The translations under genes and the position numbers were made by a program. A stretch of 63,864 nt of DNA, filler included, from Dugesia japonica (Eukaryota), in NCBI GenBank assembly GCA_001938525.1. It is 5 parts of 5 records of this genome, joined end to end, with 100 filler letters (N's around TTAATTAATTAA, not from the genome) between each part and the next. Parts side by side here need not be neighbours in the genome. Positions count along the whole stretch, not along the records: positions 26,355 to 42,746 come from MQRL01625321.1; 4 more parts are not named here. One strand, written 5' to 3'. Below are positions 11,368-39,082 of this stretch, piece after piece. The stretch's first letter is position 1, and each line of letters starts with the position of its first letter. The notes beneath the pieces are model-generated. The model searched no databases, had not been told where the DNA came from, and worked only from the letters and a program-made list of their open reading frames with translations.

Positions 11368-12609
11368 ATGAGTATTCTACAGTTCATTTGGGTTGGAGAC
11401 TTAGATGAAACAAAAACACAAAGACTTCAAAATCCGCAAGCATTATCTTACGATCGATGCCATCCTAAGAAAATGATAGTCAGACAAGATAAAAAAGAAA
11501 CACGTATTGGACGAAAAAATTCTAAAATGCCCCCAGATTACGCATTGGAAAGTGCAGTTAGCAATCGAATGATCTCTCGGAACCATGTCACTATTGAAAG
11601 ATTAAGTAAAGGAAATTACATGCTTTATGATCACAGTTTAAATGGAACATACGTTAATTTTGTTCGTGTTATTGGTGGAACTATTCTTAAACACGAAGAC
11701 GTTGTGTGCTTTGGTCATATTAATGGTGCAAATATTAAACCTGGAGAATCAGTTACACCGTTCGCAACTGATTTGAAATATCGTGTGGAAATAATCGATA
11801 AAGTTAGTGGACCTAATGAAAAATCTAGTGGTTCAATTCGAAAAGGAGATAATTATTCACAATCAGAATCTAGTCAATATGAAGAGACTGCTGCTACAGA
11901 GCAAAAGCAGCAGAAAAAAGCAAAACATAAGCCATTGAGTGATAAAACGAAAAAAATCAAAGTAGTCAAGCGTGAATCAGATGAATCAGATAGATCTTCG
12001 GATTCATCTGAAAGCAGTAACAATAATCTTAGTAATAGTTATAAAAAACAAAAGAAACCAGTGGATTTATCGTCAGTATCTAGTTCTGAAGATGACAGAT
12101 TAAAAAGTACAAGTAAAGATCGCCAGTTTACTAAAAAATCTACAGATAAACAAAAGAAACATTCCACGATGCCAGAGTCACGTTTTAATGATTTATCGGT
12201 TCGCAAGCGTAAATCCGGTAACGAAAATAACACAAACTCTAAAATGAGTTTCAAAAAATCTCACGAATCTAAAAGACCGATGAAAACCGATGAAGATCGT
12301 CGAATGTTATCATCGGGTGTAAAAGATCGAAAAATGCATTTAAATCAGAAATCCAATTCAAAACCGAAATATTCAGATAATAATGGAAATTCTAACACGA
12401 ATAAATCGATGAAACGAAATGTAAACTTGAATTCCAATTACGATTATGAAGAATGCAGTGCTCATCCATGTTTACGGCCTGATGGTGAGAATTTAATCGA
12501 TTGGATTATGTGTGATAAATGCACTCAATGGTTTCATCAATCATGTGTTGGTCTTGACGAAGCCGTAGAAGATGACGAGAGTTACTATTGTCCATATTGT
12601 GTTCATTGA
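11368..12609 (+). CDS. TCF19: FHA-domain / PHD-finger nuclear protein (TCF19-like)
   Basis: Intact 413 aa. FHA motifs RIGR, ISRNH, DHSLNGTYVN, LKHEDVVCFG; S/K-rich linker; C-terminal PHD CSAHPC..WIMCDKCTQWFHQSCVGL..YYCPYC. ATG directly follows a tttttag acceptor. Orthology is inferred from domain architecture only. Confidence 0.75.
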   Translation: MSILQFIWVGDLDETKTQRLQNPQALSYDRCHPKKMIVRQDKKETRIGRKNSKMPPDYALESAVSNRMISRNHVTIERLSKGNYMLYDHSLNGTYVNFVRVIGGTILKHEDVVCFGHINGANIKPGESVTPFATDLKYRVEIIDKVSGPNEKSSGSIRKGDNYSQSESSQYEETAATEQKQQKKAKHKPLSDKTKKIKVVKRESDESDRSSDSSESSNNNLSNSYKKQKKPVDLSSVSSSEDDRLKSTSKDRQFTKKSTDKQKKHSTMPESRFNDLSVRKRKSGNENNTNSKMSFKKSHESKRPMKTDEDRRMLSSGVKDRKMHLNQKSNSKPKYSDNNGNSNTNKSMKRNVNLNSNYDYEECSAHPCLRPDGENLIDWIMCDKCTQWFHQSCVGLDEAVEDDESYYCPYCVH

Positions 12610-18780: not shown

Positions 18781-21200
18781 NCCACTGTCTTTTAATGTAA
18801 TCTGTTTATTTTTCTATACCAGCGTGATACAACAGTTTGTGTATCCTTGACACTTCCTTATTACACCATTCCGAATTTCTTTCTCAATTTTCATCGGAGT
18901 TACTGTTTATAACATTCTTGCCTTAATCTTGCCTTTTGCTGCGCCTTTATAATACATCTAACACAGAGTACAATTATCACACTCAGGTCGTAATAACATA
19001 TTTGTATTACTGTGCAATTTCCCTTTTCTATAATGTACCTCCATTACCAATCTGCTCAAATAGTTCACTCACGCCTGAACTTGTGTTGTTAATGGTTCTT
19101 TTGTTCCTAACATAAAGTGATGGCTTTATGGTCCGTTCTGAGTCTAAATTGTTTTCCATAAAGATAATGTTTGAAAAAATTGCAAAAATAATATACTGCC
19201 AGCAACTCCTTTATTGTAGTACAATAACCTTTCTCATGACTGGTCATTGAATGCGATCCACACGTAATGACTCTTTATTTGCACATCTAGTCATTCTGGT
19301 AAAATAGTATTGCCCATATTTCGTCAAAAAAGCAGTTGTTTCTTGAGAATTCCTTTCTAGTTCTACCTGGTAATATGCATTACCAAAATAAATCGATTTA
19401 AAATATCTATTCCCATGTAACGCGTCCAACATCTCATCTATATTTGTCATAGGAAATGCTTGTCTTTCAGTTATCGCATTTAATCTCCAAAAATTCAAGT
19501 AAAGTCTAATATCCTTTTTTCTTTCTTCCAGATACATACTAACGGCCCATTCCACGGTGAAATACACTTCCGAATAATTCTATTCCGAATCGTCTCTTCA
19601 ACATGGTTTTCTAGTTGTAATGGAATTCTATATGGTTTCCCTTTGATTGGCTCTCTATTTGTCACAATTCTATGTTTAGCAAAATGAATACAACCTACTT
19701 CCTATTTCGACGCCATAAAAACATTTACTCTCCTCTTACAAATCGTTTGTAATTTACTTCCATCTACAATACCTGTCGTTTTTTTAAATCTTTCTTATCT
19801 ATCTAATTCTGCAGCTTCCTAACCAAATCTTCCTTCAATGGTTTCTTTCAATTCTCCATTTGCTTTACTTTCTTTCTTAAGTTGAAACCCAACAATGTGT
19901 TGAACATTTATTCCTCCAATAACAACTGGATACACACTTTCCGCTACTATAAATTCAACTTCTGCTTTTTTCTCTCAAAGCAGAACTCCCAATCGTATCT
20001 TCCCTTTAATATTTAAGCGACTACTATTTGCACAATGTGACTTTAACCCACTAGTTCCACNTTTACTTCAGGCAATTTCTCTAAGCATGACTCGTTAATT
20101 ACATTAATACGAGCTCCCGTATCCAAGAGACATTCCATTACAACTCCACCAATAATTATTGATTTACTTGATCTGCCCTGCATTTTATCGAAACTTATTT
20201 CTACTTGTTGACCTCCTGACAATACTCCCACCCATTCATCAACATTACCCGCATGAAACTTCTGATTTTTAAGAAAAATATATATTTTCTTAAAGATTCT
20301 CTCTCTATTTTCTTACTTCTCTAGTCTATGAAGACCTTCCTTGATTAAAGTTTCTAATAAATGACTCAAACCACTCTTTGTTCGCTTTTTCCATTTTGTC
20401 TACCTTCCAATATGTTTTTCCACCTTATTCTCGGCATCTTGATGCTCTGTGACTGATCCTATCACATTAAAAACATCTCTCTTTTTTATACTATATTCTT
20501 ACGTGTCTCATTTCTCCGCATTCAAAACATCTCTTTTGTTCTCTTTGTGAGCAATCTCTACTTAGGTGACCTCGTCGTTTGCATGTCTAACATTATCTAT
20601 ACTAATTTATTGAGATCTGTGTTCTCATGTAACCTTTTCTATGACATCCCCGACACTTTATCTCCCGTCTTAAGTTTTTACCATTTACTTGTCGAGTGTC
20701 TACTCGTCTTGATTCCGTTTTCTGTGTACTCACTACTCTCGCGTAGCTACGTATCATGTTAATTTGCTCTCTTTTTTTCGTACTCGATTTAGTAGAACTA
20801 GTGTTTCCTTAATTTCCTCCAGAGTTTCTAACTTCCGCAATATTAACTCTCCTTCTACTTTTCTGTTTTCAGACCACACCAGCAACTTAGCAACTAACTT
20901 TTCTTTTGTGAAATCTTAATTCTTAAATATTCTGTCCACCATAGATTCTATCGTCTTGATATATACGTCTATCTTCATATTATCCCTTTTCAGATTAACC
21001 AAGTTCTGTAACTCGTGAATAATATCTTTTTCNNNNNNNNNNNNNNNNNNNNNNNNNNNNNNAAAGCCACCTGTTTTCTTCGCAGTTTTAACATAATCTT
21101 CTACCAAATCCTCATCAAGAAGGCATAAAACCAATATTTTTTCTTCTTTTTTTGAAAAATTACTTTAGCATCGAAAAATAATTCGCATCTTTTATTCATT
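18781..21200 (-). mobile_element. Ty3/Gypsy retrotransposon remnant (gag, protease, RT, RNase H)
   Basis: gag 20916-21134 is similar to 51765; CFECG knuckle ~20520; protease CLLDTGA (20043-20231); RT RLNAIT..FPMTNIDEMLD..AYYQV..TAF (19244-19567); RNase H KELLAV..FKHYLYG..RTDH. Confidence 0.9.
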
Positions 21201-21505
21201 ATAATTATATGGCGGATGCACATCTTAGTTATCTTAATATCTTATTAATAGGGACCATATATATTAATTTAGGTTTTTAATGAAAAATAGAGTTGCACCC
21301 ATAGTGCATTGCTGCATACTCCAGACTTGCAGTGCACTGTACAATCTGTACAAAGTCAAAGTGTTAGTGTACATACCAACCAATACAATCTCTGCAGCCT
21401 CTGCTGCATTAGCCTGAATATGTATAATAAGCATACACAATTTATCGCAATTCGCAATTTCGCATTATCACGAGTATTCATTAACTTGAAAAATAATTTT
21501 ATTTT

Positions 21506-21549
<44 letters not shown>

Positions 21550-22072
21550 AAAACAAACGATTTGTTTGAGAAATTTTATTTTAATTAATTATATTTTTTA
21601 TAGAAAACAATATTAACAAAACTATATTTAATAAATTAATTTAAAAATACGGTTGATAAACTATATATAATATTTTGTTTCAAAAAGAAATGCAGTTAGC
21701 AGAAACAAATATTAAGGTAGTTATTCACCAAAATATCTAACACGCATATTTCAATAAAATTGAAATATCTTGAAGGTAATATTGATAGAAAACTTCCTGC
21801 CAAATTTGAATAAGATTTACCGTTTAGTTTACAAGATAGAGAATTAAAGTTGAATAATTTTAACATTGGTTCTAATGTGAGAAGCTGAAAATCTCGAGCA
21901 TTAATTTATATTACAAGCGTTTTAACCAAAAAATTTCGATGAGACTTACCATGCATAAAGTTTAATATTTTATAAATATGTGTACACAGGCCAGAAATTA
22001 TTAACCGTAAAATTAAAGAATATGCTACAAATACATATAATAATATTAACCATCGTTTTATCCTTTTATATT

Positions 22073-24330
22073 TGTAGGAGCAACGCTTGTCAAGTAATAT
22101 CTTTACTTTAACAATGTTACAGTTAGATTTTGTAATTCAAAAGTAGACATCAAAGTTTGTTAAAATATAATAAATCAATAATATTTAAACAAATATGTTT
22201 AAATATTATATCTAACATCCCTCCTTCTTAATCCTTTTGAACATTTGTTTTTTTAGCCTTCGATTCTTCATAGTTTAAGGATTCCAGAATAATTTAAAAG
22301 CACTTGATGTGGACTTAAAAATTTTAATATTTCAAAAGGACCTTGATATATGTATCCATTTGTCTTTAAATTGTGAGGTTTTACATTTACTAGAACTTCT
22401 TCCGCTTCAACAAAATTCCGATGTACTCTTTTATCTGATTCATATTCATTTAGTTTCAGTACTGTATTTTTCAAATTTTTATCAACTAATTCTCTAACTT
22501 CTACACAGCTTGTATTATCATTTAGTCATGATCCATGAATCATAATTTTTCTTCCATAAATTATTTCAAACGGTGATACTCCAGTTGCTTTTGTTGAATT
22601 GCTTTAATTGAAAATTGAATTCGAGTTAATAGCTTATCCCAACTAACTTCTTCACATCCACCTTTTATTGTAGTGACAATCATATCACATAGAGTCCTGA
22701 TCGTTCTTTCAGCAAATCGGTTTGATTGATGTTAGTATGGAGACGAAAATTCTTGGTAATCCCAAATTTCTGAGTCGTTCCTTTCATCAATTTTCCTTCA
22801 AGTATCTTGCCCCTATCTGTTAGTATGAATTTGGGCTTGCCGAATTCTCTTTTATTGATTCAACTACAGATTTTTCATCTTGTTTTGCCATGGTTAAAAG
22901 GCTAACAAGTTTGCTGCATCGATCTATAATGACTAAAACATACTTATTCTTTAATGTTGATTCATCAAAATAAACCATATCAATGACAATCTGTTCTAAT
23001 GCTCCACATTCGGTTCGAGGTAATAAAAATTCTTTTGTCTTGTCTGTATGTTTTTCTTTGATTGCAAATTAAGTATTTTTATAAAACTCATGTTCAATTA
23101 TTCTGAACATATCAGGCCAAAAAAGTGGTTTGAATATATTCCGTTAATTTTCTTGTTCCGAAGTGACATAATTCTTCATGAATGTAATTTATTAAATCAA
23201 CCACTGATTTACCTGCTAAAACAATCCTATTTAAACTTTTATCAAGAAACAGCGATTTATCCTCTTCCATAACGAATTTATCAATATCTCTGAAGTATTT
23301 ACTTTTATTTAAATTTTTACTAACTCGTAAGCTTTGATCTTTAATATATTCAATTATCTCTTTGCTAATTTGATCATCACTTGGAAGTTTTATGATACTT
23401 TCTTTATCATAACTTGAGCTTTCTACAATATTAATTCTTCTAACTCTAGATTTTTCACCTTTTGCATCNTGATGAGTCGTCAAACATTGGGCACATAAAC
23501 TTTCTCCTATTCTTGATAATCCATCAGCATTACTATGATCAATGCCTGTACAAAATTGAAGATCAAAATCAAATTCTGCTAGGTTTGTAATCCCCATCTG
23601 GAACTGTAAACTAATTGGTTTACTTGTTTTTTTTATAAACACTAATGTCTTATGATCAGTTAGGGCGATAAACATTTTTCAATAAAGATAATGCTTGAAA
23701 TAAATCATAAATTCAAATAACGAGATGCATAAGCAATAACAGTTTCCACACCATCTCTCGACAATTGACTCAAAACAGAACCAATTGCATTGAAACTCAC
23801 GTCTGCATCTAATATCATTTTACTTTGAGGGTTTAGAAATGCCAAGATTGGAGAACTACATAACTTTTATTATTCTATTGCTGGCATTTAGCTTGAGTGC
23901 ATTCATTTTTTTATTATCAAGTTTGTTATTTTTGCATATAACATCTTTTGAATCTAGTAAATTAATCTCTTTTATTCCCATTTCAAACGCTTCCATTATA
24001 TCGATACCACCAATAAAATTTCGAAAAATTTCTTTAACAATAATTATTTCTTTCTCAATATGCTTTTTATTCCTAAATAATTTAACTCTAGCTTTTCCTA
24101 TGCATTTTTCAGAAAATACTCCAGCTTGCATTACATTTGAAAATTGAATTTTAGGTGAACCAGTCTTCTTCCAAATTTCCTCACTCATCCCTGAGACAGA
24201 CGCTCCTGAATCTCGTAACATCTTTACACTAATTCCATTACAATTTACACTGCTCCAATTTCTACCATCACGTTTTTGATACATCAGTTTAACATCAGGT
24301 CTCCCATCAATATCTCGATCACCAATGAAA
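22073..24330 (-). mobile_element. Ty3/Gypsy remnant (protease, RNase H, integrase, PPT, short 3' LTR); RT core deleted
   Basis: Protease MLRDSGASVS; RNase H LDADVSFNAIGSVLSQ, TDHK, NADGLSR; integrase HEELCHFG; PPT AAGAAGGAGGGA|TG at 22217; putative LTR 22073-22217. Confidence 0.88.
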
Positions 24331-24499
24331 ACANGGGATTTTAATTTGTTTGAATAAACAAATAGTGTTAAGCATAGTTTTGTTTGAATAAATTTTGTAA
24401 TGAATTCTAGTTCTGATATTAATAATCAGATGAGTTTTTCAAACTTATCTAACAATAAGTATATAATTTGTTCAATTTATTGAAACAGAGCTTGTTCCC

Positions 24500-24828
24500 T
24501 ACTTTGCGATGCATCCAAATAAGTTATTGATAATGGANAATGCCAAGTGTTTAAATCTACACAAGTTCAAACATATTTACGCTACAACAATATAAACTAT
24601 AAATACATAGTTCCATATTCTCCTCAGTTAAATCCCATTGAAGAATGTTTTTCAATGATTAAGAATAAATTTCGTGCTTTTAAATCGAAAAATCCCGATG
24701 CATTGGTGCAAGACTGTTTGAACGACATTCTATCACCAAATTTTAATTATAGTGATGAATGTGAGAATTTTTATTGTAATATGAGAAGATGGTTGGAAAA
24801 AGCGAGAAGAAAAGAACATTTTATCTAA
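24500..24828 (+). mobile_element. Tc1/IS630-family transposase C-terminal fragment
   Basis: VIDN...YIVPYSPQLNPIEECFSMIK matches the DDE motif PYSPxLNPIE. Confidence 0.85.
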
Positions 24829-27995: not shown

Positions 27996-28230
27996 GCCGT
28001 TCCATCCAAGGTTCTGCCCTTTCCTTCACGTACATTTTTATTACTTTAAAAAAATAACAATATAAAATTTTGAATTGTGAAAGTAAATTGCAATAGCAAA
28101 ATGGAAGGCGTCATTTCTCATCTACTTGAGTTGAAGTCTTGATTTTTTTATTTTTATATATAGAAATGTAATTATAACTACAACTGCGACCACAAAATAA
28201 ACTTTTATTTTATTAGTAAAGAAAATGGTT
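27996..28230 (+). repeat. Left TIR (outermost ~17 bp missing)
   Basis: Matches the reverse complement of ~38878-39068, e.g. ataacaatataaaattttgaattgtgaaagtaaa and ggaaggcgtcatttctcatctacttg. Confidence 0.9.
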
Positions 28231-28740
28231 TCAACAAAACTTGATCTTGATAATAATATTAATTTTCAACATTTATTTTTTTATTCATATATTTGTGAAA
28301 ATTGTAACAAAGAATTACTTAGAAAAAATAAAGCTAGACATTAAAAAATTTGTATAAAGACTCTATTCAGTCGTGACTGAGAGTATACAGGATTAAATCT
28401 TCAATCTTTCAAATTAACTTCAACAATTTTAAAACCATTTACTTGGGAAAAGTATCCAGGAGAAAGACATTTGTTTATACAAAATTATACTGGACCAGGA
28501 ACAAGATTAGATTTAAGATTAGATGAAAATAATAATCCAAAACTTGGAGATTAATAGAGTTGATGAAGCAACTTTAAAACATGATTAATCTTACAAGTCA
28601 GAAGATTTAAGAGATAGACATTTAGCTGATGTAAATTTAATTCATGATTTAAAAAAATTAAAATTTCAACTACTTCTAAAAAAATACAAAGAGTAAAATT
28701 AGCAATGAAAGGTAAAATTATTTTAGGTGGAGGAACGAAC
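28225..28740 (+). pseudogene. Zinc finger plus parvovirus-VP1u-like phospholipase A2 (PLA2X)
   Basis: YICENCNKELLRKNKARH; NYTGPGTRLDLRL (Ca-binding loop); INRVDEATLKHD*SY (HD catalytic helix); RHLADVNL. One frameshift and one stop in the PLA2 part. Confidence 0.82.
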
Positions 28741-28869
28741 GAAGTGAGTTCCATCCCTCTTAATAAAAATATTAAAAATAATTAAAATAAAGAGAAACAA
28801 GGAACTTCTTTCAGTCGTTCCATATTATCAAATGAACTTCATAAAGATTAAAAACTAAAATGTGAAAAT

Positions 28870-29243
28870 ATTTTACTCTAGTTGGAAATCAAAAATGGAA
28901 TAAAACCTTGTTACATAAAATTGTAAATGATTATAATAATACAATTCACTCTAGTATAAAAGCAACACCAAAGAAGCATCAGAAAATATTGAAACTATAA
29001 AAGAAATAATTAATCAACATAATCATGAAAATGATAGCTTTAGTCTTAAACAGAAATTTAAAATTAGAGAAAGAGTTAGAATATAAATTTGAAAAAGAAT
29101 TTACTTCAAAATTAACAAATAAAATATTTGTAGTAACCCAAGTTTACAAGACAAAATCTTTTACTTATGGAATTACTGATTTAGGACACGAAAAGAGTTT
29201 TGGTAGATTTTATAGTAATGAACTTCAAAAAACTGTTTTTTAA
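28870..29243 (+). pseudogene. Retroviral-like (rve) integrase, C-terminal remnant
   Basis: IVNDYNNTIHSSIKATP and FEKEFTSKLTNKIFVV..TYGITDLGHEKSFGRFYSNELQKT match the Polinton integrase tail. DDE core not seen. Confidence 0.82.
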
Positions 29244-29259
29244 ATTTTATTAAATAAAA

Positions 29260-30010
29260 ATGGCTTCATAAATCTGGAATAAAAATAGAAATATCTTTAA
29301 TAATAAAATCTTTCCATCTAATTTCAGATTATTAATAATTGGATCTTCTAGATCGGGTAAAAATGTTTTGCTAATGAAAATGTTAATAACTCTAGAGTTT
29401 TTAGAATATGATACTTTGATAATTTATTTAAACCAATTTGAATTACAATTAGCTTATCATGGTTTTGAAAATGGATAAACAAAACAAGATATTGTTTTTA
29501 TTTTTGAACATCAAAATATAGTTCCCTATTCTTAAATAACTCTATTGCAAGTTATTCAATGGTTTATAGAAAGAAAATATTTAACAAATAAACCAAGATT
29601 GATAAACGTAGTTTTAAGTAATAAACCAAATGAAATTATTCCTTGTGATAAATTATCTAAACAGAAAAAGAATTTAATAATTTTTGATGATGTTGTAAAT
29701 TTGAAAGATCAAGAAATTCAGAAAAGTTGTTTTACTAGAGGAAGACATGTTAATTGTAATGTGATTTATATTTCTCAAACATATTTTCATTTGGATAAAG
29801 ATTCTATTAGAAATAATTCCAATTGTTTTATATTATTTTAATTAAACAAAACAGATAAAGATAATGTTTATTATGATTTATTTAGTAATATATTTTCTAG
29901 TAAAATAGAATATGATTATAATGTAAATTTGCATTGGAAAACAAAGTATAATTATTACTATTTAGATAGAGAAGCAGATGTATTGATTGAAGATTTATTA
30001 GAATGGGAGA
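29260..30010 (+). pseudogene. A32/FtsK-like packaging ATPase
   Basis: FRLLIIGSSRSGKN (Walker A), LIIFDDVV (Walker B), FTRGRHVNCNVIYISQTYF, SIRNNSN. Confidence 0.9.
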
Positions 30011-30177: not shown

Positions 30178-30717
30178 ATGTCTTCAATATCAGAACAAGA
30201 ATTAATTGATTTGATAAATTCAAATAAAACTAAATCTGTAAAGGTTAATGTTAAAAACTATTGAATTGGTAATAAAGTTAAAGAACAAATAAAAAAGAAA
30301 CTAGCCTCTAGAGTGCAATCGAAGGAGGATTTGCTTTCCTTGCTACAATTTTAGCTATATTTGCTGGATTAGCATCAACAGCTGGTATTGTCACTAGAAT
30401 TGCTAGTACGATAAGTAATTCTAGAAATGCAATTAAAAAACAAAACGAAACTGAATTAGTTGAATTACAGAAAAGAGAACTCATTGGCATTTGTGACCAA
30501 AGGGAACGTCAAGAAAAATTAGAAGCAAATAAGAAAAAGAATAATTACAAAAAGAAGATTCAGGACTTTACTTCAAACCTTATCAAGGAAGTGCAATTTA
30601 TAAATATTTAAAAAATAGCTTACTAAAGTTGAAGATGATTACTAAAAGCTTTGAAAATTTAATACAAATAAAAACTAGTGGTGATGGTTTATATTTAAAA
30701 CCTTATGAAAATTCTAA
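30178..30717 (+). pseudogene. Polinton core / membrane-active protein with EGG|F site and GLYxKPY repeats
   Basis: EGGFAFLATILAIFAGLASTAGIVTRIASTISN; SGLYFKPYQGS (~30560); GDGLYLKPY (~30680). Confidence 0.65.
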
Positions 30718-30722
30718 ATAAA

Positions 30723-31583
30723 ATGGATAATACAGATGTGTAAGCAAGAATAAAACCTTTGAAAGAATTAATTAAAGCTCAAGAGCAATATGATCATGTA
30801 TTAACTACATGAGTAATTGAATCAAGGACTTCACAAGACACTTTAACTTAACAGCAACAACATATGGTTAAAGCTTTTGAAAAATTAAGTACAAAATCAA
30901 TAAACCTTTTTGAAAATAGAATACCTTTCTTTCCAAGTACTATTTTAAATACTGAATTTTTAAAAGCTCTAACAAATATACCTATATTTGAAAAAAAAAT
31001 TATTTCTGGTATTAACGTTCAAAGAATAATTTATCCTAAACTTAAAGGATCACAAACAGAAATATATTTATTTGAAGAAAATGAAAAGAAATACTTTTTA
31101 AATAATCAAGAACTAATTTCTTATTCTGAAGAAAAAAAGAATTTAATTTTATGAAATGGAAGTAATGATCCAGAAGCAAAAGATATTTATTTAAATAAAT
31201 TTGATATTACACTTCATCCTAATTTTAAATATTATAAATTTTAAACGGAGGAAAAAGAAACGCCTTCCAGTCACGAGCGAGAGCGAGCTCCTGAAAGTCG
31301 TAAAACTTCTAAAATACCTAAGCTTAAAAAGGAATACAAGAACATATTAAAGGTGATGGTTTAAAATTTATTAAAGCTTTAAAATATCATGAAACAGAAA
31401 GTGATCCAGTCCAAGAGTGTCCCATCTCGTTATTTAAAAAATTAACATTATTAATTTTAGCTGTAAAAGCTGGTCACAATAATTTACACATAGAAATTAA
31501 ATCTGTTTGTAAAGAATTATTAAACTAAGAGTAAATTACCAGATATAAATTTAATGTTTATAAAAGAAAATATTTTAGGTATG
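30723..31583 (+). pseudogene. Conserved Polinton protein of unknown function
   Basis: C-terminal GDGLKF...LFKKLTLLILAVKAGHNNLHIEIKSVCKELL resembles the recurrent Polinton LxLL...AGN...EI..I..EL tail. Confidence 0.55.
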
Positions 31584-31616
31584 AAACCTTTCCATAATAA
31601 ATTCTAGTTAAATAAA

Positions 31617-32397
31617 ATGTCTCATCAATTTTTAGTTGTTGGCCAAGAGTCTAATTTACAAGTTAATTTAAGATTTCCAATAGAATTAGATTATGATTAT
31701 GAAATGGCTTTATTATCTTTTAGTTGTTATAATATAATTTTTAATGTTACTAATAAAAATAATTCTTTTGAACTCCTAAAAGTCTTGAGTGGAAGCGAAT
31801 TAAAACAAGGACAGGATCCCAACGGGCCCCATCAATATAAACAAAAATCGATTGAGCAAGGTGCTTATGAAATTAAAGAAATCTCTACTAAATTAAAAGA
31901 TCATGGAATTGTAATTGTCCCAGATCTATCAACAACAAAATGTACTTTAACAATAAAACATACAATAAATTTTGATGTTAAATCTTTTGATCATACAATC
32001 TTAGGTTTTTACCTAAAGAATACTTACCAGGAAAATATTATTTAGAAAATAAAGTTGATATTCTAAACATTAATAGGATAAATATAACTTGTAATTTAGT
32101 TAAATATAATTATATTTATAACTTAGGTATGAATTTATTATATTCTTTTCCTGTAAATACTGCTGGTTTTGGTTTTAAAATTATATAAAGACCTTCAACT
32201 CCTATTTACTCAAGATTAAATTCCAAATGTATTGATTCTTTAAAATTTAATATTAGTAAAAATATATTAAAATATATTAATATATTAAAATATATTAAAA
32301 TATATTAAATATATTAAAATTTAATAATAATACTATAGATTTTGATGGTGAAACTATATCTTTATTAGTTCATATAAGAAAATGTATGGGATCTTAG
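31617..32397 (+). pseudogene. Minor capsid protein (penton, single jelly-roll)
   Basis: FPIELDYDYEMALLSF..YNIIFNV..NN; GAYEI; after a frameshift VDILNINRINITCNLV..LLYSF..GFKII..IDFDGETISLLVHIRK. Confidence 0.82.
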
Positions 32398-32765
32398 ATT
32401 TTTTAAAAACGTTTAGTATAAATACTAAAACTAATTTTGATTTGTATTCTATTGTAGATTTTTTAAATTTAGAAATTGAGGTTTTAATGAAAGATGAAAT
32501 CAAAATAGCGTCATGCATGACGCAAAAATTATTAATTATCAAAATTCAAATCAAAAAGAAAGTCATTGGGTTGCTTTTCATAANGGTTATTAATTTGATT
32601 CTTATGGTTTAAAACCTTTTAAAGAAATTGAAAAAAATGTAAATGTATATAATTAAATTCACGTTCAACCTTTAGGAACTAGTTTTGTTGAGTATTATGT
32701 TTATATTTTTTATATTCACTTAGTTTTAAACCTTTTGATGAAATTATTAATGAATTATATATAAC
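32382..32765 (+). pseudogene. Adenain-like maturation cysteine protease
   Basis: SHWVAF, FDSYGLKP, VQPLGTSF; the catalytic Cys region is degraded. Confidence 0.8.
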
Positions 32766-32774
32766 TTTAAATAA

Positions 32775-33480
32775 ATGAATAAATTTGGGGCTACTTGAAA
32801 TAGTCAAAATAATACAGAGGTATTAAAACACGTTTCTGCTAAATTACAATTAGAATCTGTAAACAATGATAAACGGTTTGTTAATGAAAGTGGAAATTCA
32901 ATTACTTGTTTGAAAATTCTTAACGAACCTTAAAGGAATTAGATGCTATTAATTTTAAATATTTCACTAAATTACAAAAACAAGTAAATGAGCTAACACT
33001 AACAATGAGCGCGTTGACGCTAACACTGAGCAATCAAAATATTTATATTCAACAACTTTTAGAAAATAATAAATCTTGGATTAAAATCAAGAGTGACTTG
33101 ATGATTAAAATAAAAAAAATTAAATGAATCTTTTAATTCTTTGAAAAGAGTTAAAACTTTGGTTTACTATGTAGAAGAGTAAAGACCATCGAATTGTGGG
33201 AAAACTATTGATAACTGAAAACCAGTAAACAGTGACTGATGACCAGTGAAAAGTGGAAAAACCAATAAATGAGAGAAAAAAACAATGAAAATACAGAAAA
33301 AATACACAAGTTAAAAATGAGCTAACACAAACGAAGATTGATTTGAAAAGAGATTATCAACATCTAAGAAAAAATTGAAAAGCTCACAAAAGAAATCACA
33401 AACCTTACAAGTAATTGTTCTCCTAAAAAATTTAAAAAAATTAATTCAGAATTAGAAAAACTAACATATAAGATCAATTT
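32775..33480 (+). pseudogene. Decayed coiled-coil / fibre-like ORF
   Basis: Starts MNKFG after TAAATAAATG; EP..DAINFKY motif followed by heptad-rich segments with many stops. Confidence 0.4.
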
Positions 33481-33493
33481 TAATAAACAAAAG

Positions 33494-34162
33494 ATGAATC
33501 ATCCTTTAATTCTTTTAGAAACAGAATTTAATAAAATAAAACAAGATCTTCATATTGATCGTGTTAAAGAAATTGATGATTGTATTGATAAATTAAAAAA
33601 ACAAGCATCATCTGAAATACTTTATGAACAAGATTTATTAAATAGGATTAAAGAAATAATTGATAATTATTTTCTATTTCTCGTTTTAAAGAATTATGGT
33701 AAGTATAATGATGTATTAATATTTTTATTAACAACTTTTATTATAAAGAATGGTTTACCAAGTTATTATTGTTTGATCTTGCCATTTAAAATAAAAAGAA
33801 AAGGAAGAATAACTTATCCCAGTGGGTCCCATCTTAACACAATAAAATATTATTTCCTTGAAAAACCATTAGAACTTTATTTTTGTTTAAATAGAATAAG
33901 AGATAAAGCTTATTTTATAATTCAAAGATATTGTGATATTTCTTTTATTGAAATATTTGTAATGATTGATAATATTCCAAAATTATTTGAATACAACTTT
34001 ATTAAAAAACAAGAATTTACTTGTTTTATAGAATACAAAGAAATTATATTAACTGATAAATATAGTGTAGATAGAGTTACTTTAATTTTACCTAAAAATA
34101 TTTATAAAATTATTATTTTAAGTGGTTATTCAATTGCTAAATATCATATTCTGAATTATTAA
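33494..34162 (+). CDS. Intact 222-aa Polinton ORF, unknown function
   Basis: Uninterrupted ATG-to-stop frame; no motif recognised. Confidence 0.6.
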   Translation: MNHPLILLETEFNKIKQDLHIDRVKEIDDCIDKLKKQASSEILYEQDLLNRIKEIIDNYFLFLVLKNYGKYNDVLIFLLTTFIIKNGLPSYYCLILPFKIKRKGRITYPSGSHLNTIKYYFLEKPLELYFCLNRIRDKAYFIIQRYCDISFIEIFVMIDNIPKLFEYNFIKKQEFTCFIEYKEIILTDKYSVDRVTLILPKNIYKIIILSGYSIAKYHILNY

Positions 34163-34186: not shown

Positions 34187-34900
34187 ATGTCTGAGCGAGA
34201 AGAAGAGTTAAGTTTTTATTAACAAAAAGAACTAACACAAACCAAAAATGAAAATTTGTATCAAAATATAAATAAATATATTTACAAAGATCAAAAATAT
34301 ACTATTCAAGATCTCAAGTCTAAATTATCAAATTTAAGAGTTGTTGATTTTGAATCAGATCTTTATATCATTGATGATAAAATAAACCATTATAAAANNN
34401 NNNNNNNNNNNNNNNNNNNNNNNNNNNNNNNNNNNNNNNNNNNNNNNNNNNNNNNNNNNNNNNNNNNNNNNNNNNNNNNNNNNNNNNNNNNNNNNNNNNN
34501 NNNNNNNNNNNNNNNNNNNNNNNNNNNNNNNNNNNNNNNNNNNNNNNNNNNNNNNNNNNNNNNNNNNNNNNNNNNNNNNNNNNNNNNNNNNNNNNNNNNN
34601 NNNNNNNNNNNNNNNNNNNNNNNNNNNNNTAATTCACAAATTAGAAACTGTTAAAAATAAATTATTTTTATTTCACCAAAAAGCTTTATGTGATGATATT
34701 TTAACTGATGACAAAATTGTTACAAATAAAAATATGGTAAAACAAATTAAAGATTTTATTTCACATGAAAAAATTAAAAAAGTTAAATAGGAAAGGGAAA
34801 TTTTAAAAAAAACTTGTAAATCAAATTGATGAACAACAGAAAGTAATTAATAAATTAAAGAAATAAATTTGTCGTCTGCAGACGACACATTTAATTTTCG
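34187..34900 (+). pseudogene. Decayed Polinton ORF spanning an N gap
   Basis: Starts after TAAAATAAAATG; partly open frame 34256-34654. Confidence 0.35.
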
Positions 34901-34959: not shown

Positions 34960-37294
34960 TTATAATAAAATACAATTTAATTTTCGTTTTAATTTACCTA
35001 ATCTTAAATGAAGTTCATTACAAACTTGACAATAAAACTTATTTCCATATGTCCAGGTTCTTACTACGTTATCTTCTATTATTCTTTTATCATCATAACC
35101 TGTTAAATCGATTTTCCTTTGTTCTATTAATTCAATTTTATGTTTTTCCGATTTTAAAGTATAATTAGTTCCATAAATTATTTCTTTTATATTAAGAGTT
35201 TTTTCAAATTCTTTCATCCCTATTTAATTTAATTTAGAAACCCCTTTGTGCCTTTTATCTAATTTATTGGACTCGTTGGGATTGTCAAATTCATAAGCAT
35301 AACTTTTTGGTTTTATAAAGTCACATTTAATTATTTCATTATTAGGTTTCTCATCTTTCGTTTGAAATAAAATATTTCCTAATAAACTTTCTACTTGTCT
35401 TAAATTATTTCTTCCAATGATTTCTATAAAAATTGAATCTGTGTCTGAGTTATGAACTGTTTATTTATTTAAAAATGCATTATCTAACTGATTATAAATA
35501 AAGTCATAAATTACTTCTTTAGTATATTCTAATATATTGAAACCAATGTATGGAAACTTTTTATATTTTAATTTACTCTGCCTTAAAGCAGCTGTTTCTG
35601 CTTCACCTGTTTCTGTGCATGTAAATATTTACTTGATTTAAAATTTATCTTTGAAGCAAATTTTTGATAATCTTTATCAGATCCAACTATTTCTACATTA
35701 CATCTTTTCCCTATATCTTCTAATGTTTTTCCATAAAAAGCATTATTTAATAATTTGAAAAAGTAATCACCAAAAACATCGTTATTTCTTTTTGATTCAT
35801 TTCTTTGATCAATATTAAATTGAATATAATCTTTTAACCAAGGTTTTGTTAACATTTTATATTTACAATGTATTTTTTTAATTTTAATTCCTAACAATTT
35901 GTATAAATCTAAAGTACTTCCTGAAACAATATAATTTTGTTTATAAAATTGGTTTAAAGTTAATTTAATATTTTTCTTGGTTAATTTCTTGTTAAATGAT
36001 AATTGATAAGGAGCTAACATTTCTTTAGTTATATTAATTCTATCTGGAGCTAAAGGAAATTATTTTGTCTTTTCATGTATATCCGGAGAATATTCTAAAT
36101 TCACTTCATAAATATAATTTATTTTATTTGTTGATTTAGTATATTCTAAGTTGTCACATTCATAGATTTCATCTATTGGTAAAGGCTTTGTCATACAAGA
36201 TGCATATAATGAATTTTCATCTAAATATTTTATAAATGTGTCTTCAAAATATTTTTTAGGAATGTTTTGTTTATTTTTTATTAAAGTTTCTTTTTGTAGC
36301 TTTATTAATTTGTTTGAAATTTTTATTTTTATTATTATCATGGTTAGAAACTGGTCTTTCTCCACAAACACCTGAATAACCACCTCTAACTCCTTTTTCT
36401 ATTTTTAAAAATGTATTATATGTATCTTCTTTTGCATATTTTAATTTTTGTTTTGTGAATTTCATTCCTGAATTCCAAGTTAAACCTGGTGCAAAATAAC
36501 AATAACAAGGATCTATTTGATAATTATTTAAACAAGTCTCTCTAAAGTTTTCAAAGAAATCTGTTAAAATAATTTACATTTAGATCTTTCTCTTCCATGA
36601 ATCTTTGAAGTTGATTTATTTAATTATTTACAATAATTTTTACATCCCCTTGAACAGTGATTTTTATATTATCAGAATATGAATTAAATATTCTTTCTTC
36701 ATCTTCTTTAGTGTAATTGCAATTTACATTCAAGCGTAGCATTATTTTATTTGAATAATCAAAATAAATATTCACAATTTTAGTAATTTCTTTTTTAAAA
36801 ATACTCATAAGTTTAAAACATAATTGTTGAATATTATTTCTGGTTAATTCAATTTTACTTTCTTTAACATATTCAATTTTATAATAATTTATAAATTTTA
36901 AATGTTTAAAAATCACCAGGTAATTCATCAAATAATTTTTTAGTTTCTTCTTGTTTCAATTTCAAAGCACGCTCTTTGCGTATTTCACTATTAAAATGTG
37001 ATTTTGAATGATTTGGTCTTGTAAAGTTTAACTTGCAAATATCACAAAACAATGTAAATACACTAATCCCAGAACAACCTCTATTACTTCCACAATTTGT
37101 GGAGTTTTTATGTAATCGCAAGCATTTTAACTTGCTAATCTTTTAAAACAAATGTTGCATGTGTGATAATCATGTACCGATCTTACACATGTTTGAGATT
37201 GGATATGCTACGACAACCCTGCGTTATTCTAGTTACAAACAGGACTATTAAAAATTACCGTTAAAGCGTTTTGATTTCCACTTGTGATATTCAT
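34960..37294 (-). pseudogene. Protein-primed family B DNA polymerase (pPolB) with N-terminal zinc fingers; exonuclease domain deleted
   Basis: FENFRETC..IDP..APGLTW, KGVRGGYS, YLDENSLYASCMTKPLP, FFKLLNNAFYGKT, PYIGFNILE, NSDTDSIF (35434-35445), YDDKR; C2H2-like FCDICKLNFTRPNHSKSH. Confidence 0.93.
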
Positions 37295-38289: not shown

Positions 38290-38830
38290 TATTGACCATT
38301 CTCATCTCTTTTTGAAATTTTAATGTTTTTTATTATTATAAAGAATATTAAATTGTTTTAAATATTGTATTATTATTTTATCATTTACATTATTTTGTTT
38401 CCAAAAATTTGAAACAGAATTTTCTATAAAATTATAACTTTTTAAGAGTTTATGAAAATCACTTTGCATTATTTCATTACTAACCATTTTATTAATAAAA
38501 CCTTTTACAAAACCATACAGAATTATACAGTATCTAATCAGAAACTTAACTATACGTTAACTGTACCTTAACTGAACCCTAACTGTACCAAAACAAAACC
38601 TTATTAAAAATAATAATAACTAATTTTCTATTTGTGTTTGTTTATTTTCAAATTGACCATTAACATCTCTTTTTCGAGCTTTAAAAATTGTTCTCCTATT
38701 ATAAGGAATATTAAATTCTCTTAAATATTTTCTTACTGTTTTCTCATTTACATTATTTTGTTTTAAAAATGCCATAACTGAATTTTCTATAAAATTATAA
38801 CTTTTTAAAATTTTATAAAACTTTTTTCAG
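38290..38830 (-). repeat. Tandem ~170-bp paralogous segments (38290-38460, 38652-38822) encoding HTH-like peptides
   Basis: NFIENSVMAFLKQNNVNEKTVRKYLREFNIPY versus NFIENSVSNFWKQNNVNDKIIIQYLKQFNILY. Confidence 0.6.
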
Positions 38831-38877
38831 TTGATCCAATTACTATATTTATTCCATTTATTGCAATTGTATTATTA

Positions 38878-39082
38878 GAAGCCATTTTCTTTACCAATAA
38901 AATAAATCTAAAATTAAAAAATCAAGTCATTAACACAAGTAGATGAGAAATGGCGCCTTCCCTTTTGGTATTGCCATTTACTTTCACAATTCAAAATTTT
39001 ATATTGTTATTTTTAAAGTATTAAACATGTACGTGAGTGAAAGGGTAGAACCTTGGCTGGAAGGCGCCATTTCTCATCTACT
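38878..39082 (-). repeat. Right TIR with internal perfect 24-bp inverted repeat
   Basis: 38938-38961 agtagatgagaaatggcgccttcc is the exact reverse complement of 39059-39082 ggaaggcgccatttctcatctact. Confidence 0.92.

Follow-up and report, generated by a model that had tools for sequence, protein, structure and literature searches.

Remnant of a Polinton in Dugesia japonica whose relatives encode a parvovirus-type phospholipase A2 fused to an integrase

Results

The element and its genes

The window analysed here is a 63,864-nucleotide stretch of Dugesia japonica DNA (assembly GCA_001938525.1) that joins five parts of five records, and the element described is found in the part taken from MQRL01625321.1. 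The element is about 11 kb long, is bounded by terminal inverted repeats (TIRs) and has a phospholipase A2 (PLA2) gene at its opening end (Table 1). It is a dead, decayed Polinton/adintovirus. The Polinton traits that are clearly present are the TIRs, an rve integrase remnant and an A32-like packaging ATPase. The 105-nt core of the TIRs is 91% identical between the arms, and each TIR contains a further, inverted copy of the terminal 25-nt motif (28111-28135 and 39058-39082), which would allow either end to fold back on itself. A 6-bp target site duplication is a trait of Polinton/Maverick elements; none was recognised at the ends of this one, the left end of which is eroded. A direct repeat of 149 nt (79%; 38334-38482 and 38697-38845) lies inside the element near the right TIR, and both copies encode similar short helical peptides.

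Table 1. Features of the element, in coordinates of the window
Feature	Position	Strand	Remarks and basis
Left TIR	27996..28154	.	159 nt, 89% to right arm (blastn); outermost bases missing compared with right arm
C2H2-like zinc finger remnant, N-terminal	28288..28350	+	CxxC...H, then stop
Di-glycine position preceding PLA2 in relatives	28381..28401	+	degenerate here; alignment
Parvovirus-type PLA2 domain	28417..28719	+	PF08398, relatives' profile, translations
PLA2 key sites	Ca-loop YxGPG 28486-28500; HD 28580-28585; Tyr 28592-28594; second Asp 28628-28630	+	
ILGGG, Gly motif closing PLA2	28720..28734	+	putative maturation-protease site; motif seen directly
Linker, last PLA2 helix to integrase start	28735..28830	+	one frame, single stop 28783-28785; translation
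rve integrase remnant	28831..29243	+	frameshifted, chromo/SH3-like end; profile E 3.7e-26
A32-like genome-packaging ATPase	29260..30000	+	broken; PF04665 27.4 bits, cut-off 22.8
Gly-motif-rich core protein, adenovirus pX-like	30312..30718	+	broken; gene separate from PLA2
Conserved Polinton gene remnant	31415..31576	+	tblastn from L001 E 6e-5, from L003 E 2e-4
Split gene, candidate minor capsid (penton)	31608..32188	+	ORFs
Candidate adenain/Ulp1-type maturation protease remnant	32498..32764	+	with stops
Candidate PolB, fragmented	34960..36573	-	PF03175 E 0.017, one broken piece, below cut-off
Right TIR	38910..39082	.	ends 5'-AG on minus strand

The first-pass annotation had placed the PLA2 directly upstream of an integrase, and a downstream integrase is indeed there, but as a remnant only. 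It consists of NELHK (28831-28845) followed by the C-terminal part (28848-29240), and about 120 codons are deleted, including those for all three catalytic acidic residues (D-D-E, placed by alignment). The best homolog, a protein of 463 amino acids (P0008), covers the window by tblastn only with its residues 5-154 and 328-463 (E 2e-27). Because the stretch of P0008 that is missing holds the D-D-E triad, the window integrase has lost its catalytic core.

Further genes are recognisable in varying states of decay. The ATPase is 46% identical (E 2e-54) to that of a related metagenome locus, L001. The L001 homolog of the core protein matches the window at 30560-30718 (tblastn, E 2e-8), and itself matches Adeno_PX at E 0.0034, which is below the cut-off. 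The remnant that follows is one that we take to be PZ-like, and the split gene next to it is presumably a minor capsid (penton) gene; the latter has no Pfam match and no tblastn match from the penton-like ORFs of loci L007 and L008. The next remnant is a probable adenain/Ulp1-type maturation protease, as suggested by a weak BLASTP match (E 6e-4) of 18 amino acids around the catalytic His to the Polinton protease of locus L012; it has no Pfam and no PDB match. Translation of the minus-strand polymerase region contains NxxYGK and DTDS, which we take to be PolB motifs. With the L002 major capsid as query, no major capsid gene was detected in the window copy, which has an N gap at 34396-34632. In L002 itself, a major capsid gene (PF21738, E 2e-21) adjoins the PLA2-integrase region. 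The longest open frame in the element (33368-34162, plus strand, 264 amino acids) has no Pfam match, and its neighbours are decayed.

Elsewhere in the window, 11368-12609 (plus strand) contains an intact host gene, a single ORF encoding FHA and PHD domains that is, we assume, TCF19-like. Together with the low GC content of this AT-rich DNA, the gene points to an animal host, perhaps a planarian. A 662-codon open frame without a Pfam match (4740-6728, plus strand) presumably resembles the C-terminal part of a TTLL5-type tubulin glutamylase. Decayed pieces like those of an LTR retrotransposon are found at 19200-24430 (minus strand), which we take to be gypsy-type gag, protease, RT, RNase H and integrase, and a DDE_3 transposase fragment (PF13358, E 2.3e-8) lies at 24523-24828 (plus strand).

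The PLA2 domain of the window copy

Three peptide strings had been picked out as signs of a parvovirus-VP1-type PLA2, and all are present in the translated window: NYTGPGT at 28483-28503, VDEATLKHD at 28559-28585 with SY (28589-28594) behind an intervening stop (28586-28588), and RHLAD at 28616-28630. They involve two frames, one for NYTGPGT and one for the remaining strings, a point that the first-pass annotation did not mention. Frameshifts are located near 28543-28552 and near 28648-28660, and with these and the stop the PLA2 gene of the window is a pseudogene. In the host's sequencing runs, about 99% of the depth of contigs over this position does not have the stop after HD. A GXG calcium-binding loop and HDXXY are described as defining the parvoviral PLA2 (PMC7765992), and both are found in the window, as YTGPG and HD-stop-SY. 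In the motif previously given, DxxAxxHDxxY, the HD and Tyr hold, but the helix reads DxxTxxHD, with Thr in place of Ala. The PLA2 is at the place proposed for it, 28430..28660, but that span ends too early: the domain extends to about 28720-28734.

Profile searches agree with the assignment to a parvovirus-type PLA2. A 93-amino-acid translation with X at the first frameshift and at the stop matches PF08398 with 25.6 bits (cut-off 23.9, E 1.5e-5), and the first-frame piece alone has no PF08398 match; relatives score 27-51 bits. A profile made from relatives only gives 55.1 bits on one frame of the window and 33.1 bits on the other (E 2.4e-18 and 1.7e-11), compared with at most 0.6 bits when the element was shuffled 100 times.

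Two other identities for the locus were rejected. An endogenous parvovirus is contradicted by the lack of a capsid domain after the PLA2 and by the presence of TIRs and the ATPase. A host venom-type PLA2 gene is contradicted by the position of the PLA2 within a TIR-bounded element.

Relatives in which PLA2 and integrase share one ORF

The four best longer homologs (59-74% identity) all carry both PF08398 and rve. The best of them, P0008, comprises a zinc finger, the PLA2 and the integrase, is collinear with the window, and is the window's nearest neighbour on a PLA2 tree. The zinc finger remnant of the window (Pfam zf_UBZ E 0.13, below cut-off) is collinear by tblastn with the N-termini of P0008, P0009 and L001. 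The last PLA2 helix and the integrase start still share a frame in the window, with a single stop between them.

The extent of the fusion was surveyed with the PLA2 part of P0008 against proteins of 254-811 amino acids, a range that favours long proteins. The 55 matches comprise 18 Lottia gene models and 37 others. The Lottia models do not enter the fusion count, as they vary at the C-terminus and resemble mis-joined predictions. Among the 37 non-Lottia homologs, a precomputed rve domain (PF00665) is present in 34 and both Pfam domains in 32, and 36 match an integrase profile that was itself built from 35 of them. The fused PLA2s range from about 46% to 77% identity to P0008, and the 36 fusions, being related to one another, do not represent independent events. 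The linker between PLA2 and integrase is 5-53 amino acids long. A zinc finger, recognised by pattern in 11 of the 36, is an optional part of the fusion. The relatives share the architecture (optional zinc finger)-GG-PLA2-GG/GxG-integrase-chromo. Three ESM Atlas clusters (184, 111 and 72 members) also carry rve and PF08398, and two of these have chromodomains as well; with scores of 0.82-0.84, they are a lead only.

The fusion is not an artefact of gene calling, an explanation that we rejected because the ORF can be read directly from DNA. Two metagenome contigs, L001 and L003, have stop-free zinc finger-PLA2-integrase ORFs of 439 and 438 amino acids, respectively, which adjoin core and ATPase genes. 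Eleven loci (L001-L011) were collected in all; L002, L004, L005 and L006 have the same PLA2-integrase order with breaks, and in L007-L011 the PLA2 is unfused or cut off. The fusion-bearing contigs, L001-L006, are each too short for a protease gene to be seen.

The fusion is not universal among PLA2 homologs. A search without the length filter gave 1557 representatives at E 0.001; among the best 150 of these, 19 match the integrase profile, 85 end within 25 residues past the match and 46 have other tails. Many of these 150 are probably fragments. On the PLA2 tree, a quick version with 113 columns and 138 rows in which 53 of 135 forks are open, fused and unfused forms interleave, with 29 changes for the fusion label on this short alignment. 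Partial domains and most Lottia models were left out of its rows, and the tree does not allow the origins of the fusion to be counted. Stand-alone PLA2s (P0002, P0003 and P0005) lie within the smallest starred clade that contains the window, so the fusion can be lost or split. The suggestion that zinc finger, PLA2 and integrase form one ORF is thus borne out in intact relatives including P0008, and is qualified by the low count of zinc fingers and by these stand-alone PLA2s.

Several other arrangements were encountered. About 30 "hypothetical proteins" of Lottia gigantea (P0006-P0007 and P0012-P0039) begin with this PLA2, and in P0007, P0027, P0031 and P0035 integrase pieces follow it, suggesting that these models are a related Polinton family annotated as host genes. 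Other PLA2 partners are MBT repeats (P0097, possibly a chimeric gene model) and DUF5679 (P0062 and P0107), and P0143 has a pX-like stretch N-terminal to the PLA2. No confirmed relative was found in the viral contig collection that was scanned, the phage collection gave no match, and the PDB sequence search gave only one chance match (E 1.3). A genome contig scan found three integrase-only loci, and the one examined, L012, is without PLA2. L012 (CBDHCY010000003.1, 1669-11664) encodes an Ulp1-type protease, a PLA2-less rve integrase, a capsid-like protein and an A32-like ATPase, of which only the integrase passes the Pfam cut-off. The contig belongs to a GTDB genome labelled as a Leptospiria MAG, in which a Polinton-like gene set is probably eukaryotic or viral contamination.

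Conservation, selection and predicted structure

HDxxY is found in all 36 fusions, so the HD dyad is kept throughout these relatives; a GP[GNL]T loop is found in 35 of the 36, and the second PLA2 Asp in all 35 aligned rows. Of the integrase triad, the D, D and E are present in 35, 33 and 33 of 35 rows, and the remainder are gaps. By these residues, both predicted enzymes look functional in the relatives. For the single pair L001 and L003, dN/dS is 0.11 for both the PLA2 and the ATPase and 0.13 for the integrase, and in this one pair the 34-codon zinc finger has a value of 0.61. The PLA2 of the fused ORF is therefore under purifying selection of a strength like that on the integrase, as judged from one pair.

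A predicted structure of another fusion protein, P0041 (pLDDT 75.9, pTM 0.49), agrees with the domain assignments. Residues 56-150 match rice secreted PLA2 (2WG7) with a middling Z of 6.9 (rmsd 3.1, 83 aligned), residues 172-434 match foamy virus integrase (Z 18.4), and the C-terminus matches a chromodomain (Z 6.5). The Foldseek matches listed for the model are integrases or transposases, which leaves the PLA2 part uncovered.

Glycine motifs at the borders of the PLA2

A GG or GxG motif occurs within 8 residues after the PLA2 in 35 of the 36 fusions, compared with about 1 in 36 expected from composition, and such a motif precedes the PLA2 in 26 of 32 scorable fusions. Inside the integrases the motif is found in 20 of 8137 windows. 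In the fusions of L001 and L003 it occurs only three times: before the PLA2, in the Ca-loop and after the PLA2. The core proteins of the same two loci have eight GG/GxG motifs each. As the linker varies in length, the Gly motif stays at the PLA2 border. In the P0041 model, both border sites (residues 30-35 and 149-154) are low-confidence loops. The motif after the PLA2 is also present in unfused homologs, in 21 of 28 with other tails and in 22 of 49 that end soon after, and because it is kept there it may be part of the domain. The N-termini of P0011 and P0010 have EVQKGG/EVQNGG repeats before the PLA2, with up to five extra di-glycine motifs.

Copies and transcription in the host

The element family is abundant in the host: two runs of one organism have 7172 and 7544 contig records, respectively, that match at 82% or more. 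Among joints with intervening letters, 12 of 19 were examined, and at least five join the end of the PLA2 to the start of the integrase by way of a shorter linker; by hand reading, four of those five keep the frame without a stop. A poly-A run contributed 74 reads, of which 54 are less than 90% alike and lie mostly over the PLA2 and ATPase, so some sister copies are weakly transcribed. Another RNA run (X21) contributed nine reads, too few to be informative.

Discussion

A putative virion precursor

Virions of mavirus contain the integrase together with a cleaved predicted hydrolase, and GG|X and GX|G are the cut sites of the mavirus maturation protease (PMC6048507). From these sites and virion contents, and from the Gly motifs at the PLA2 borders, we infer that the fusion is a packaged precursor, and we think it fairly probable that cleavage of the precursor yields an entry lipase and an integrase inside the particle. 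It would be packaged probably on the genome, by way of a basic or zinc-finger N-terminus and the integrase. The adenain-type protease of the element would cut after the Gly motifs during maturation, as in mavirus. The freed PLA2, predicted to be calcium-dependent, might then help the particle or core through a cellular membrane, and the freed integrase could insert the genome that has just entered, with no need for new gene expression. Through the fusion, the entry enzyme and the integrase would be co-delivered at a fixed 1:1 ratio. The window copy can do none of this.

Cleavage, packaging and an infectious stage are thus predictions from gene sequences and from analogy. The first-pass annotation had derived an extracellular infectious stage from the PLA2 and had assigned the enzyme to endosomal escape. 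The former is a reasonable inference and no more, since the window copy is dead and the search for a major capsid gene in it found none. Regarding the latter, the type of PLA2 is borne out, but the site of action is disputed even in parvoviruses (PMC7765992, PMC13483459).

Alternately, the fusion might stay uncut, with the Gly motifs as hinges. The PLA2 would then remain attached to the complex of integrase and DNA, and its action on an internal membrane, that of the Golgi or ER or the nuclear envelope, would bring the complex to chromatin. Linkers as short as 5 amino acids and the retention of the motif in unfused PLA2s would fit such a protein, as would the report that AAV2 needs its PLA2 after the trans-Golgi, not for endosome rupture (PMC13483459). 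However, the motif is fixed at the PLA2 border across the full range of linker lengths and has a counterpart on the other side of the PLA2 in most scorable fusions, the core protein of the same elements is rich in it, and the P0041 model has no confident packing of domains against each other (see its pTM). We therefore regard an uncut fusion as unlikely. It is also conceivable that the PLA2 serves for exit, by membrane damage that frees particles, or serves a helper-virus-dependent cycle, and that the fusion is a matter of gene economy. PLA2-like genes have been reported in Polinton-like viruses associated with entomopoxviruses (PMC11296320), and nothing here sets the timing of PLA2 activity. 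Yet the partner integrase is of a kind that mavirus packages, which points to a virion protein, and parvoviral PLA2 mutants lose infectivity (PMC7765992), which makes exit or helper dependence distinctly improbable.

The fusion could also be an accident of gene order, such as a lost stop codon, in elements that are now only intracellular and carry the PLA2 as a passenger. The interleaving of fused and unfused forms (on a short alignment with many open forks) and the very many diverged copies in the host would be expected in that case. Against it, many of the unfused rows may be fragments or broken copies, the catalytic residues are invariant, and the fusions span widely diverged PLA2s. The low dN/dS of the fused PLA2, which equals the constraint on the integrase in the one pair compared, already weakens a passenger role, and we consider an accident very improbable. 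The cleaved virion precursor is the reading that we prefer.

If a PLA2-integrase precursor is inside the particle, these elements may carry integrase into new cells. More broadly, and with rather less than even confidence, we suggest that a widespread Polinton lineage makes a Gag-Pol-like precursor of finger, PLA2 and integrase that is packaged on the genome and processed by the capsid-maturation protease. Entry and integration would be one pre-loaded step, and in both infection and integration these "transposons" would behave as the DNA equivalents of retroviruses. The long-open question of infectious particles in animal Polintons has been argued mostly from capsid genes. Fusion of an integrase to an enzyme best known for cell entry ties integration to virion function in one protein, makes the idea of Polintons as infectious viruses testable with single genes, with no need for a whole virus, and provides an easily searched architecture by which a Polinton lineage can be recognised. 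The window copy is only a fossil of that arrangement.

Comparison with known systems

PLA2 in Polintons is already known; the new part is its fusion to the integrase with bordering Gly motifs, an arrangement that is widespread and under selection. A PLA2 in adintoviruses, as the first-pass annotation stated, is indeed published for Polintons (PMC3671162, PMC4642659, PMC5803895, PMC8502044). The PLA2 gene was noted by Yutin in 2013 (PMC3671162), packaging and a role in entry were proposed in 2015 (PMC4642659), and the Sf-Maverick CAP includes a Polinton PLA2 (PMC5803895). Recent preprints also report it in Polintons (bioRxiv 10.64898/2026.07.28.741253) and in group 2 Maverick-Polintons (bioRxiv 10.64898/2026.06.19.733378), and it has been called typical of Alpha adintovirus/group 2 (PMC8502044, bioRxiv 10.64898/2026.06.19.733378). 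The accessible portion of PMC11071296 mentions no PLA2 for adintoviruses, and the words lipase and PLA2 are absent from PMC11161782, PMC10748475 and PMC8097293. No description of a PLA2-integrase fusion was found in the openly available full texts that were searched. Automatic annotation of database clusters already names the combination of rve and PF08398.

The closest published counterpart is PLA2X of adintoviruses, likewise a parvovirus-VP1-like PLA2 that was proposed to be membrane-active, in an Alpha/Mayetiola-class virion module (Starrett et al. 2021, PMC8502044). PLA2X is, as described there, a separate gene with a C-terminal pX-like domain, whereas here the integrase is the C-terminal partner and the pX-like gene is separate. 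L007 and P0078 resemble the PLA2X arrangement. Published Polinton PLA2/CAP genes have the same domain, but the accounts available place PLA2 and integrase in different ORFs or count them individually, and mention no fusion. In mavirus, the MV02 rve integrase and the MV13 predicted lipid hydrolase are both reported in the virion (PMC6048507), a location that we predict for the integrase and PLA2 here. The mavirus proteins come from separate genes and the hydrolase is of an unrelated alpha/beta type, in contrast to one ORF with a PLA2 fold.

The parvovirus VP1u PLA2 has the GXG loop and HDXXY in common with the window copy, which passes the PF08398 cut-off. In VP1, however, the PLA2 is followed by a capsid domain, and here by an rve integrase, in a dsDNA Polinton with TIRs, the ATPase and a probable pPolB. 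In retroviral Pol or Gag-Pol, the integrase is the C-terminal part of a precursor and is released by the virus's own protease. The fusion can be likened to these precursors in its C-terminal integrase, the predicted fold of which matches foamy virus integrase, and release by a protease would extend the likeness. Unlike retroviral Pol, it belongs to a DNA virus, has a lipase as partner, includes no reverse transcriptase, and would depend on a cysteine protease encoded elsewhere. The PLA2 gene of the window thus belongs to PF08398 and is predicted to work like the PLA2 of parvoviral VP1u, and it is neither a VP1 nor a PLA2X.
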